Made by a program: the position numbers and the translations under genes. Below the pieces are notes generated by a model. That model searched no databases and was not told the origin of the DNA. It saw nothing but the letters and a program-made list of their open reading frames with translations. A stretch of DNA of 64,000 nt, taken from the IMG/VR virus record IMGVR_UViG_3300021960_009431, one strand, 5' to 3'. Source of the DNA: a virus. Below are positions 37,584 through 42,040 of the stretch, in pieces (within the stretch, counting starts at the first letter, position 1; every line of letters starts with the position of its first letter).

Positions 37584-40400
37584 TTATGCAAAACGACTCA
37601 TAGCAGCTGAAGTATAACTTGTATCAACTCTTACATTTCTAGCAGCTGCTGTTCTTGCTGCACCGCTACCTCTACCTGCAATCATTTGACTATTATCAAT
37701 ATTATTAACTACAGTAGTAACTGGTACGTTAATTTGATTTGACATCGTTGCTAAACTCATTGCTGAAGGTGTAACTGTTGGTTTATCTATGGTATCTAAA
37801 GAAGCAATAGCAGGTGCACTAGGTAATGAACCTATCTCAAATTCTCCAGCAGGTAGCGGGGCAGTTCTAAATACAGTACCTCCAAGAGTTACTCCACCGC
37901 CTCTTATCATATCATCCCTATAACCTATATTAGTTCCAGCTCCATAAGCACCAGTAGCTGCAGCTGTAAAGTCTTTCTGATCCCTAGATACTTTTGGTAA
38001 AACATTGATTGCAGCTTCAGCAATATCTGCTTGAGACTCAACACCCGGTCCTTCCAAAAACATTGGACTGGGCTGCCGTCCATTTGCTGATGTTCCAGTG
38101 ACTGCTTGAAATTGATTTTTAGCTACTAAAGCTCCTATAATACTGCCATCTGGGTGATCTTGATATTGAGTACGAGCACGGTTTAATATTGACCCCATAA
38201 TCATACCTTTTTCTACTGTATAATCACCGCCGGTTTGAGCTGAAGATTCAGCATAAACTGCTCTAACCAGATAATTTAATTCAACATCAGATACAGGTCG
38301 TCCTAGATATTGTTCTATAGCTTCACGAGGTGTGAGCTCTGCAGAAGGTATTACATCATCTTGAGGCGTAGCTTGAAGATAATCAGAAATTTCTGATTGT
38401 GGAACAAATGTATCATTAAATGTACCTATAGGGTATTGATCATAATTACCAGTCACTGGTAGATCACCACCACCATATATATAATCTGTATCAGAAATAG
38501 CATCAAGAGCATTGTATTCCATACCAGGTGCTACATTACCTTGCATCCCCGGCAGTCTACCCGATGAAACTTTACCAATTGGGTTACTTCCTGGAGCAAA
38601 TCCTAACTCTCTATTAACAGTAGCATCAATAGCTGGTTGCATATCTATTTGATCTTCAGCATCAAGTGCCCATAATAATAAAGATCTAACTATATAATCT
38701 CCACTAATATATCCAGCAATACCAGCAATTGCACCTGTTAGTGGAGCAAATGGACCACCTATTAATGCTCCAGCAGCTGCAGCTAACACACTTACTGTTA
38801 GTCCGGCAAATTCTCCTGACACCATTGCCACTTTTTGAGTAGTACTAAGCGTATCATCTGTTAAAATATAATATGTAGAACCAGCAGCAAATGCAACACT
38901 CAATCCAGGCACTTTACCTAACAGTTTATTTAATTTTGGGTATTTCGAAAGAGCACTTCTCTTAGCATCATCTATTGAAGCAAACGTGCCAGGTTTTTGT
39001 CCACCTGCTCCTGTTGCACCGGGTGCTACTCTATATCTTTGCATTTTTTTATCAAAGACATATCCAGATTGCCTTAACGGTGTTTTTGCAGCGCTTAGAG
39101 CTAAAGCAGCTGCAGTACCCACAGCAGCACTATCCATCAATTTATTAAATTCACCTTCTATAGATTCATCTAAATTTTCATCAATATTAGTATCAGATTC
39201 ATCTTCATTAAATAAATCTGCTATACCTAATCTATTGAATGTATAAGCTGCTATTGCAGTTGCAGCGGTTGCAATAAGAAGACCTTTACTTCTACCTAAC
39301 AATCTAGGTTTTAAAGCTTTAGCTCCTTTTGGAGCTTTTTCTTTACCAGCATTTGCTGCTCCAGCTGCTAAAGCTAAAGGTGTTAAAGCAACTGTACCCA
39401 TTGCTAATGCACTTGCAATCAATGCTCCATATTCTGATAAGGTTTCACTTTCTAAGAAATCAAATAGTTCATCTTCATTGTCAGGTTCAAAGAAATCATC
39501 TAATCCAAAATAATTAAATGCAAAGTAAGCCATTGCACCTGCTAATGGTATTATTAATTTTCCCTTTACACCTTTTGCTCCAAATAAAGATGTAGCTAAT
39601 CTTGCTCCTAAGAAAAGGCTTGTTGCAGTACCTGCATTTACTAAACCTTCACCGGTTATTTCTACTCCAGTTTTTTCTTTAAATATTTTAAAAAATTCAG
39701 TTTCGAAATCAGTTTCTAAAGTTTTAATTCCTTCATCAATTGCATCCGCTACATCTTGATTAGCTTCAGGATTAAAGAATGCATTTAGTCCTAGATAGCC
39801 TAGCATAAAGGTTGCCATAGCGAGAGGAATTGTTTTAAACTTAGCCCCTCCCATTAAGAATGCAACTAAACCAGCTCCTGCAGCGGCGGATGCTACAGGA
39901 TTATTTTGTATAGCGCCTGCTAAACCACCATTACCATCTTCTCCAAAGATTAATGAATCGAATTTATCTCCGGCACTTTTCTTAAATTCATCATATGCCT
40001 CATCACCAGCTAACTCATCTTTAAAATCATCTAATCCAAAATATCTATAAGCTGCTGTCCCAAGTATACCTAATAAACCAGCAGTAATAAGACCTCTTAA
40101 TAGACCACCTCTTGCTGTTGTATCTAGAGAACCAATAGCAGCAGGTCCCGTTTCACTTTCCATTCTAGCTGAAGCTTGTTGTAAACGGTCTTCTTCTCTT
40201 TGTTGTTCAGTTAATCTTAATTCTTCGTCTTCTTTTGCTAAACTATCTACGCGCATTTGTTCAGCGAGAGTATCTGATTGAACAGTAAGAATATCTACGA
40301 CACTTTCTAAGCGCGTATTAGATTGTATAAGAGTACTTCTTATATCTTCGAGTAATGTGGAATTATTTTCCAAATACTCTCTTACTGCGACGTCAGCCAT
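37584..40400 (-). CDS. Tape measure/baseplate hub (gp29-like) protein with SleB-like muralytic domain
   Basis: 938 aa; N-terminal coiled coil, Ala/Gly-rich hydrophobic repeats; LVRAVYAES..ILNR..NQFQAV near the C-terminus; downstream of 26/51. Confidence 0.75.
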   Translation of the reverse strand: MADVAVREYLENNSTLLEDIRSTLIQSNTRLESVVDILTVQSDTLAEQMRVDSLAKEDEELRLTEQQREEDRLQQASARMESETGPAAIGSLDTTARGGLLRGLITAGLLGILGTAAYRYFGLDDFKDELAGDEAYDEFKKSAGDKFDSLIFGEDGNGGLAGAIQNNPVASAAAGAGLVAFLMGGAKFKTIPLAMATFMLGYLGLNAFFNPEANQDVADAIDEGIKTLETDFETEFFKIFKEKTGVEITGEGLVNAGTATSLFLGARLATSLFGAKGVKGKLIIPLAGAMAYFAFNYFGLDDFFEPDNEDELFDFLESETLSEYGALIASALAMGTVALTPLALAAGAANAGKEKAPKGAKALKPRLLGRSKGLLIATAATAIAAYTFNRLGIADLFNEDESDTNIDENLDESIEGEFNKLMDSAAVGTAAALALSAAKTPLRQSGYVFDKKMQRYRVAPGATGAGGQKPGTFASIDDAKRSALSKYPKLNKLLGKVPGLSVAFAAGSTYYILTDDTLSTTQKVAMVSGEFAGLTVSVLAAAAGALIGGPFAPLTGAIAGIAGYISGDYIVRSLLLWALDAEDQIDMQPAIDATVNRELGFAPGSNPIGKVSSGRLPGMQGNVAPGMEYNALDAISDTDYIYGGGDLPVTGNYDQYPIGTFNDTFVPQSEISDYLQATPQDDVIPSAELTPREAIEQYLGRPVSDVELNYLVRAVYAESSAQTGGDYTVEKGMIMGSILNRARTQYQDHPDGSIIGALVAKNQFQAVTGTSANGRQPSPMFLEGPGVESQADIAEAAINVLPKVSRDQKDFTAAATGAYGAGTNIGYRDDMIRGGGVTLGGTVFRTAPLPAGEFEIGSLPSAPAIASLDTIDKPTVTPSAMSLATMSNQINVPVTTVVNNIDNSQMIAGRGSGAARTAAARNVRVDTSYTSAAMSRFA

Positions 40401-40542
40401 TTTGCTCTCTCTGTTTCTCTATTTTTTCTAGATAGGTTTTTAACATATCAATATAAACATCACGCTCAAAAGGTATCATATTTTCTATTTCTTCTAACGA
40501 ATATTTATGATGTTGCATCAAATTAAAATTCGTATAGTACAT
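40393..40542 (-). CDS. 51: Baseplate hub assembly protein gp51-like (probably made as a -1 frameshift extension of gp26)
   Basis: YYTNFNLMQHHKYSLEEIENMIPFERDVY; no SD before its ATG. Confidence 0.8.
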   Translation of the reverse strand: MYYTNFNLMQHHKYSLEEIENMIPFERDVYIDMLKTYLEKIEKQREQNG

Positions 40543-40545
40543 GTT

Positions 40546-40581
40546 CGCTAAGCTGTTATGGCTTAGCGCTACATAAAAAAA
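40546..40581 (-). promoter_or_regulatory. Programmed -1 ribosomal frameshift signal
   Basis: mRNA U UUU UUU (40581-40575), 6-nt spacer, perfect 8-bp hairpin CGCUAAGC-CAUAACA-GCUUAGCG; the -1 frame is gp51. Confidence 0.7.
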
Positions 40582-41285
40582 CTGTTCAGACCACGTAAAG
40601 GTATGAACTCCTCCTTCCCACACTCTGCACATGTATAGGTAATGTTATGACCAATGTAAGGCATAGTTTTATAAAAGTCAGCTAATTTATTAAATTGTTT
40701 GCTATTTAACTGCTCAACAAATTCCATTAATTCTTCTTTAGTACTATTTTCATGTACATCATCATTGTCAAAAATTATTGAAATATTTTCAGCAAAAAAA
40801 CGTAAAATATTTTCAACGTTACTATCACTAAGTTTTTCCTGGGCTTTGTTTAAACCTGTAATAGTTGGGTATTTCATTACTACACCTACATCATCTGTAA
40901 GCATAATTTTATTATCGTGCTCTTCAGGAAATATAACTTCTACTTCTTCTAAATTTAATTCATATTCAGTAGTATGTTTACATTCACTTTCACCAGGATG
41001 GCGTAAAGAAAGCTTTACAAGATTATTTACTGATCTTGCTCTAATTTGTAAAAACAAATATTCAATATCAAAATTAGGAAGATTAACAATTCTTTTTTCA
41101 TCTAACTTAACACAGCTAGTTAAAATATTAACTACTGCGTTAGTTATTTCTTCTTGATCATTTCCTTCTAATGCCATTAAAAGAAGCTTTTCTTCTTTCA
41201 CAAGGAAAGGTCTAAAATACACTTCTTCTTTTGTAGACGGTATAATCGCTTTAAATTCAGGCACTGCGATTTTTGGTAAAGCCAT
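40569..41285 (-). CDS. 26: Baseplate hub assembly protein gp26
   Basis: MALPK, FRPFLVKEEK.LL.A, FDIEYLFLQIRARSV, KYP, CAEC..GLNSFF. Confidence 0.92.
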   Translation of the reverse strand: MALPKIAVPEFKAIIPSTKEEVYFRPFLVKEEKLLLMALEGNDQEEITNAVVNILTSCVKLDEKRIVNLPNFDIEYLFLQIRARSVNNLVKLSLRHPGESECKHTTEYELNLEEVEVIFPEEHDNKIMLTDDVGVVMKYPTITGLNKAQEKLSDSNVENILRFFAENISIIFDNDDVHENSTKEELMEFVEQLNSKQFNKLADFYKTMPYIGHNITYTCAECGKEEFIPLRGLNSFFM

Positions 41286-41302: not shown

Positions 41303-42040
41303 TTAAGTAATAGTAAAACCATTAGTATTAAAAGTTGAAATTCCAGTTAATGTTGTAAAGTCAGGAAGTCCTACATCTCCTAAAAAGTCATCAAATATAT
41401 CTGTAACACCAGATATACCTAAACCACTTCTTGCACCTCCACCCTGTGCACCTCTGCCAAGTGAAGGTTCATTCATATCAGTAAAGTACTTGTAAGAAAA
41501 TTGCACATTAAGTTTATGAAACTCTTCACTGTTCCAATTTAGTGGAAGCGAGTTAATAATGATAGGATATGCTTCTCTTAAAGTTATAGCATATGTAGGT
41601 GTACCTTCCTGATTGTATTGAATAATTAAAACATCAGAAATATAATCACTATAATATCCTATACTTTGATGTCTTCTAATATTTTGTTGTCTATTATGAT
41701 TTCCTACAACTATATTTTGCCAAGAAGTAAATAATTTTTTCTCATTTAAATTGGCATCACAAATCATTGAAATATTTACATCTGGGTAAACTACACCATA
41801 CCCTCTCTTTTCAGACAATCCATAACCAGTCGATTTATAATCTGATGACACAATTGATCTACCAGGAAACTCTGCTGAATCGATTCTAAACCTTAAAGGA
41901 TTCAAAGCTGATTTTGCATCATCAGAAAGTAAAGTTTTGCGCGGCAATGATAACCACATTTCAAAATGACTTTGCTTTGATACTTTATTACTATTTTCAC
42001 CTGTAATATTTGATCTGAATGTATTTACATTGAAAGGCAT
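41303..42040 (-). CDS. 54: Baseplate-tail tube initiator gp54 / tube-like protein
   Basis: AEFPGRS, F..WQ, YY.DY, L.EAYP, L.V.F.Y. Confidence 0.75.
   Translation of the reverse strand: MPFNVNTFRSNITGENSNKVSKQSHFEMWLSLPRKTLLSDDAKSALNPLRFRIDSAEFPGRSIVSSDYKSTGYGLSEKRGYGVVYPDVNISMICDANLNEKKLFTSWQNIVVGNHNRQQNIRRHQSIGYYSDYISDVLIIQYNQEGTPTYAITLREAYPIIINSLPLNWNSEEFHKLNVQFSYKYFTDMNEPSLGRGAQGGGARSGLGISGVTDIFDDFLGDVGLPDFTTLTGISTFNTNGFTIT

Follow-up and report, generated by a model that had tools for sequence, protein, structure and literature searches.

A probable -1 frameshift between gp26 and a gp51-like extension in T4-like phages, with possible likeness to lambda G/GT

Introduction

The frameshift that joins lambda G to T is conserved in long-tailed phages "except T4" (Atkins et al. 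2016, PMC5009743); lambda gpG and gpGT arise from it, by a conserved -1 shift in the tail assembly chaperone genes that precede the tape measure gene (cited in that review from Levin 1993 and Xu 2004). The locus described here belongs to an uncultured marine T4-like phage. It lies on the minus strand of a 64,000-nucleotide (nt) stretch of the viral record IMGVR_UViG_3300021960_009431 (hereafter the window; G+C content 34.6%) and comprises a gp26-like gene followed by a short open reading frame (ORF) of the kind annotated as gp51. A first-pass annotation, made from the sequence of the window, had proposed that a programmed -1 shift fuses gp26 to gp51 upstream of the tape measure gene, and that genes 26 and 51 are the Tevenvirinae equivalent of G/GT. 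Having compared the junction with those of related phages, we consider it probable (about 0.8) that ribosomes make a gp26-extension fusion by a -1 shift. A G/GT-like chaperone role, taken alone, has in our judgement an even chance of being correct.

The gp26 junction in the window

The product of the gp26-like gene (Table 1) matches the Pfam family PF12322 [T4_baseplate] over residues 9–237 (E 6.3e-58). The match is nearly full-length, covering profile positions 2–218 of 219 with 196.5 bits against a gathering cut-off of 24.5, and the gene is the sole T4_baseplate copy in the window. The protein also matches phrog_150 "baseplate hub" (E 1e-62). Its coding sequence (CDS) ends AGT TTT TTT ATG TAG, the TAG occupying 40571–40569, which places a heptamer of the X XXY YYZ type one codon before the frame-0 stop. 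The coordinates first assigned to this AGU UUU UUU AUG UAG end and to its heptamer are exact on the minus strand. After a spacer of 6 nt (ATGTAG) follows the perfect 8-bp hairpin that the first-pass annotation had pointed out, 40568–40561 pairing with 40553–40546; folded with its flanks it has an energy of -14.5 kcal/mol (z = -3.17), and 0 of 200 dinucleotide shuffles were equally stable.

A ribosome slipping on the heptamer would read base 40575 twice. The -1 frame then begins at TAT (40575), translates as YVALSHNSLANMYYTNF... and, as had been claimed, runs straight into gp51, remaining open for 60 codons. The predicted long form has 237 + 60 = 297 amino acids (aa) beside a short form of 238 aa, in agreement with the earlier estimate of 238 and about 297 aa. 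The extension matches phrog_634 "baseplate hub assembly catalyst" over residues 2–58 (E 1e-23) and aligns also to the C-terminal part of phrog_150 (positions 236–277). The ATG at which gene callers start a separate "gp51" abuts the hairpin, 3 nt past the stem, and is preceded by no GGAG-like Shine-Dalgarno (SD) motif, both as originally described.

A run of seven T is not in itself significant, and was rejected as such: the AT-rich window holds 35 of them (50 +/- 10 expected), and a second in-frame T TTT TTT lies within gp26 at 40800–40794 on the minus strand (CGT TTT TTT GCT, about residue 163). A -1 slip at this second heptamer would reach TGA after one codon, and it looks like a chance occurrence since the FF encoded there is not conserved in relatives. 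The presence of this second copy means that the heptamer alone is not diagnostic in this AT-rich genome. What goes beyond chance, judging from the alignments below, is the conservation of the heptamer together with the -1 reading frame among relatives.

The -1 frame of the window is also open upstream of the slip site, as far as an ATG at 40632 (minus strand), giving a 79-aa ORF which ORF callers could report as an overlapping gene. In most relatives the corresponding upstream stretch is merely 2–13 codons long and has no start codon.

Conservation of the junction among relatives

We surveyed 92 loci chosen by gp26 homology only, with 76 unique complete junctions among them. They include the window, IMG/VR contigs, the cyanophages S-WAM1, ACG-2014e and S-PM2, Pelagibacter phage Mosig, Methylophilales phage Melnitz, Sinorhizobium phage phiM12, Caulobacter phage Cr30 and Ochrobactrum phage ORM_20. 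The sequences are related, so naive probabilities overstate their independence.

T TTT TTN stands in the gp26 frame in 92 of 92 loci, and the pattern spans cyanophages to alphaproteobacterial phages. The last base of the heptamer is T or C in 89 loci, A in one and G in one. The remaining locus (L083, IMG/VR contig 3300002040_000003) has a Y-ending heptamer and an intact extension, with a gp26 homolog interrupted before the heptamer (its tblastn match ends at residue 219); it probably reflects a misassembly or a broken copy. The unique junctions are divided equally between TTTTTTT (38/76) and TTTTTTC (38/76). The codon before the Phe pair is NNT in all 76, through six codons and five residues (S, D, N, G, A), where the background frequency of T-ending codons is 37–76%; the first Phe codon is TTT in 76/76 against a background of 71%. 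A frame-0 stop follows 0–3 codons past the heptamer in 74/76. Every junction has 20 or more open codons in the -1 frame, and stops occur in the other two frames in 76/76 and 71/76.

Homopolymer runs are error-prone, and the L083 gp26 is disrupted upstream; one might therefore ask whether the arrangement is an artefact or a decaying gene, a once continuous gp51-like ORF having been interrupted by a homopolymer sequencing error or a recent frameshift mutation. We give this explanation next to no credence. The T run varies in length from six to eight among relatives with the -1 relation retained throughout, and a sequencing artefact was rejected because the same frame relation recurs in 92 loci, which stem from isolates as well as metagenomes and from more than one sequencing method, and one metagenome contig is 100% identical.

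Over extension codons 3–18 the ratio of amino acid-changing to silent variation (pN/pS) is 0.40 in the -1 frame versus 0.92 and 1.53 in the other frames. By this measure the -1 frame evolves as coding sequence, under purifying selection, from the slip site onward. A tblastn search with the extension hit 493 phage records, and in nearly all of them the alignment begins at residue 2, ten codons upstream of the window's ATG. The first-pass annotation had named a -1 overlap, a U-run and coding conservation upstream of the gp51 Met as features to look for in relatives, and all three are conserved.

The heptamer and -1 extension are present also in Vibrio phage R10Z (Schizotequatrovirus, KVP40-like), Aeromonas phage AS-zj, Cronobacter phage LPCS28, Stenotrophomonas phage Bhz51, Xanthomonas phage BUDD and Rhizobium phage RHph_I1_9 (last codon TTG). 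A third arrangement may exist in the Vibrio phages SD25 (L099; Ackermannviridae) and K355 (L100; unclassified), where the extension is in the -1 frame, the heptamer is missing and the gp26 stop overlaps an ATG (TAATG); there the extension may be made as a separate peptide through translational coupling.

Could the window likewise do without recoding, a free 49-aa gp51-like peptide being translated either from its own ATG (40542) or through reinitiation past the gp26 stop? An in-frame ATG does stand at codon 12 in the window, a stop-start overlap (TAATG or TGATG) is found in R10Z, Bhz51 and RHph_I1_9 just as in the heptamer-less SD25 and K355, and databases annotate a separate gp51. We nevertheless hold separate translation to be very unlikely. 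The window's ATG lacks an SD and lies close behind a stable stem, and column 12 of the extension, which may be Y, H, M, L or F, is Met in merely 15 of 76 junctions. Residues 2–11, which precede that ATG, are conserved as protein (pN/pS 0.49 in the -1 frame, 0.82 and 1.75 in the other two). In 41/76 the extension has its first ATG only at codon 19–20, and in 65/76 the stretch from the nearest upstream -1 stop to the slip site contains neither ATG nor GTG nor TTG. Separate translation also leaves the invariant NNT TTT TTN unexplained, and with it the gp26-like domain of T4 gp51 described below.

Existing annotation reflects the position of these start codons. Several records carry no annotated gp51 because there is no early ATG (ACG-2014e and Mosig have none before codon 20 of the extension), and a joined CDS was marked in 0 of 17 annotated records inspected. 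If the -1 frame is decoded into the long form, it follows that the short "gp51" ORF of cyanophages is very probably the C-terminal extension of that form and not a gene of its own.

Elements flanking the shift site

Most relatives have an SD-like GAGGG or GGAGGG 7–9 nt upstream of the heptamer, and the computed duplex with the anti-SD is -4 kcal/mol or stronger in 69 of 76. Synonymous codon choice backs this element: 41 of 51 Glu codons are GAG (background 31%) and 47 of 74 Gly codons are GGR (background 34%).

The hairpins downstream have a mean z of -2.07 among relatives, with z < -1.5 in 48/76. That of the window is among the stronger (-13.2 kcal/mol in a 45-nt test segment versus a mean of -9.4) and is kept in relatives whose gp26 is 82–84% identical, the sole change being A-U to G-U; these closer relatives are 3 loci drawn from a single metagenome scan. 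A 9-bp stem in one clade stays paired through a CG<->GC exchange, a Leu-to-Val replacement being matched by a synonymous Gly change, and another clade shows a compensatory GC<->AU exchange in a hairpin at the same distance.

RNA polymerase slippage on a homopolymer, a known route to fusions (review PMC5009743), would give the same 297-aa protein by adding one extra U in part of the mRNAs, the ribosomes not slipping. With seven T in the window and six to eight in relatives, it accounts equally well for the conservation of the run. Half of the relatives, however, have only six T and then C, which is short for efficient transcriptional slippage. The hairpin at the canonical 5–9 nt, with its compensatory changes, and the SD-like motif at a dnaX-like spacing, backed by codon bias, would moreover act on ribosomes and not on polymerase. 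The layout of the putative stimulators thus favours ribosomal over transcriptional slippage, and we regard the latter as unlikely.

Relationship to T4 gp26 and gp51

T4 gp26 and gp51 are listed as hub assembly chaperones (Leiman et al. 2010, Table 2, PMC3004832), gp51 being absent from the particle (PMC3004832). Their genes are divergent and on opposite strands, and gene 26 has G TTC TTT at the conserved FF; because of both features T4 cannot fuse gp26 to gp51. T4 gp26 (208 aa) resembles the short form of the window in that it ends at the conserved FF and carries PF12322 (residues 1–206). T4 gp51 (249 aa) also possesses a complete PF12322 domain, at residues 1–201 (E 3.9e-52), and matches phrog_150 over residues 3–248; it continues in frame into a segment, residues 204–244, which aligns with the extension of the window. 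In a MAFFT alignment the predicted fusions and T4 gp51 are colinear across the junction, where T4 gp26 stops. The two T4 proteins share 20% identity; T4 gp51 is on this evidence a paralog of gp26 to which the extension has been joined in frame. The fusion of gp26 to gp51 by a programmed -1 shift, as first proposed, is strongly supported by this colinearity together with the 92 of 92 heptamers, the coding -1 frame and the lack of a usable start codon there in most relatives.

A six-frame hidden Markov model search of whole records found two PF12322 genes in T4 and one each in S-PM2, R10Z, Mosig, phiM12, AS-zj, LPCS28, Bhz51, BUDD and SD25. T4 thus combines two diverged genes with the lack of a slippery site; a single gene is present in the window, as in the nine other genomes. 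We would generalize from these records that a slippery site accompanies the one-gene state and is missing where there are two PF12322 genes. T4 itself having no frameshift, the frameshift as read from these genomes belongs to the one-gene T4-like lineages, that is, the Kyanoviridae, the KVP40-like phages and several others.

Sullivan et al. 2010 (PMC3037559) noted that the first ~200 aa of T4 gp51 are missing from the gp51 of cyanophages and marine vibriophages. This N-terminal gap would be explained because gp26 supplies the ~200 residues via the shift.

Predicted fold and comparison with known frameshift systems

The AlphaFold2 model of gp26 has a predicted local distance difference test (pLDDT) score of 92. 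The three best matches in a VIA-align comparison of the model with 48,161 PDB chains were 3fgx (Z 7.9), 3klu (YqbN, Z 7.1) and 2ob9 (HK97 tail assembly chaperone, Z 7.0); all three lie on residues 1–95, and the fourth match has Z 5.6. We take YqbN to be a member of the XkdN-like chaperone family. The top Foldseek match of the model is 2ob9 as well, with a probability of 0.90. A profile search of PDB sequences with the gp26 alignment gave nothing relevant.

In the second domain of gp26 (residues ~100–225; 40600–40990) there is a C-x-H near residue 103 and a CxxC at 220–223. T4 gp26 has the equivalent CPEC and T4 gp51 a CPKC at a different position. The Cys/His motifs suggest a small metal-binding element.

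The likeness to lambda G/GT would lie in three traits: two products with a common N-terminal chaperone domain (in the window a predicted chaperone-like fold, with borderline scores); a -1 shift, at an X XXY YYZ heptamer lying a few codons short of the stop, that gives rise to the long form; and a gene situated between one of the tail tube family and a very long helix-rich ORF. In contrast to lambda, the window's protein belongs to PF12322 and to no named tail assembly chaperone family, its short form of 238 aa has a second domain of ~140 aa with Cys motifs, its extension is only 60 aa, and the T4 homologs serve hub assembly and not, as far as is known, tube polymerization.

E. coli dnaX shifts on A AAA AAG with a tripartite signal, and its shifted product is the shorter one. 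Most relatives of the window resemble it in having GGAGGG or GAGGG 7–9 nt upstream, a heptamer and a hairpin 5–9 nt downstream. They differ in the heptamer itself, U UUU UUY, and in that the shifted product would be the longer; the window possesses the hairpin only.

Neighbouring genes

Downstream of the extension, and overlapping its stop, begins an ORF of 938 aa (Table 1). The ORF has a 64-residue N-terminal helix and many Gly/Ala-rich hydrophobic segments, and it is mostly helical to about residue 600 in an AlphaFold2 model that is otherwise unusable (pLDDT 36). No match was found in Pfam, NCBIfam or PDB profiles, nor in a tblastn search of the phage collection, and BLASTP and hhalign detected no similarity to T4 gp29 or any tape measure. 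Based upon its position, size and composition, and not on homology, we regard it as a putative tape measure gene. Cr30 and phiM12 each have a large ORF, one or two genes downstream, that bears a tape measure annotation. As to the first-pass placement of the junction upstream of the tape measure gene, a large ORF does follow directly, its identity being a matter of the same three traits.

Residues ~700–770 of this ORF, in its C-terminal third (37584–38400 region; LVRAVYAES, MGSILNRAR, NQFQAV), are well conserved among 9 homologs. An apparent likeness to SleB-type cell-wall hydrolases was set aside, since Pfam did not confirm it up to E 10. The Atlas neighbours of the ORF are tail lysozyme clusters below threshold, every score being <0.9.

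Upstream of gp26 lies a gene for a tail-tube-like protein, as it does in Mosig, phiM12, R10Z and LPCS28. In phiM12, Cr30, Mosig, Melnitz and ORM_20 one or two small ORFs (82–139 aa) stand between the extension and the large tape-measure-like ORF; that of phiM12 matches phrog_27150, as does, weakly, that of Melnitz. The window's large ORF adjoins the extension directly.

Table 1. Coordinates of features at the gp26-extension locus of the window
Feature	Position	Strand	Remarks
938-aa ORF	37584..40400	-	ATG at 40400 overlaps extension stop (ATGGCTGA)
-1 frame extension	40393..40575	-	60 codons + TGA 40395–40393
"gp51" ATG	40540..40542	-	extension codon 12; callers' start for a separate 49-aa ORF
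Downstream hairpin	40546..40568	-	putative stimulator; perfect 8-bp stem, 7-nt loop
gp26-like gene	40569..41285	-	ATG at 41285, 238 codons; frame-0 short form 238 aa
Slippery heptamer T TTT TTT	40575..40581	-	candidate -1 shift site; X XXY YYZ in gp26 frame
Tail-assembly-chaperone-like domain	41001..41285	-	gp26 residues 1–95; predicted fold comparison
Tail-tube-like protein	41303..42040	-	gp48/gp54/gp19 family; Phage_TTP_2 E 2.7e-10; phrog_45 "tail tube"

Proposed mechanism

We infer that the majority of ribosomes would read gp26 as far as the TAG and release the 238-aa protein. A minority, probably paused by the hairpin which starts 6 nt downstream, would slip one base back with two tRNA-Phe on the UUU UUU of U UUU UUU, and read 60 codons in the -1 frame to yield the 297-aa protein. 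The two products would be the counterparts of T4 gp26 (short) and T4 gp51 (long), which in T4 are two diverged paralogs. By analogy with lambda G/GT, both forms may chaperone the assembly of the central hub and tape-measure complex; the shared N-terminal domain would be the tail-assembly-chaperone-like part, and only the long form would bear an extra binding module.

Several observations weigh against this scheme. The support for the fusion is wholly comparative, and a run of T6–T8 is compatible also with polymerase slippage, leading to the same protein. U UUU UUY lies outside the most efficient bacterial shift sites. The window, like its close relatives, has no upstream SD-like element (CGT GGT replaces GAG GGR; -2.2 kcal/mol), and the downstream hairpin, although frequent, is weak or missing, or at least not convincing, in about a quarter of the relatives. 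The heptamer is lacking in SD25 and K355, and because of their stop-start overlap the extension is apparently able to work as a separate peptide. With regard to function, the chaperone fold matches fall at Z 7–7.9, a range which VIA-align calls common for unrelated models, the Foldseek match has E 0.48, and the tape-measure identity of the 938-aa ORF has no homology support. The structural comparison that had been suggested gave tail assembly chaperones among the top three VIA-align matches, at borderline scores.

The larger claim, that 26/51 are the Tevenvirinae equivalent of G/GT, is supported in part: the top fold matches are chaperone-like and T4 gp26 and gp51 are listed as hub chaperones (PMC3004832), but T4 and its close kin have no frameshift. 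It is about as plausible as its negation that gp26/gp51 are the G/GT chaperones of the T4 superfamily, that the one-gene frameshift state is ancestral, and that T4 and its close kin replaced the shift by gene duplication.

Significance

A literature search, whose coverage excluded subscription journals, found no published description of a gp26/gp51 frameshift. The mechanism is a canonical one, and the gene class is probably one already known; the interest of the finding is mainly for specialists in phage assembly and recoding. The annotation of hundreds of phage genomes would have to be revised, and the gp51 called "truncated" in cyanophages and marine vibriophages would, if our reading is true, be an annotation artefact. 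On this reading T4 gp26 and gp51, whose part in hub assembly is still described as unknown, acquire a role open to testing, and a pair encoded through a frameshift in one lineage has its natural counterpart in two paralogous genes of another. Should the equivalence with G/GT and the ancestral state of the frameshift both hold, T4 would not truly stand apart from the chaperone frameshift that nearly all long-tailed phages share, and a textbook generalization would lose a gap.

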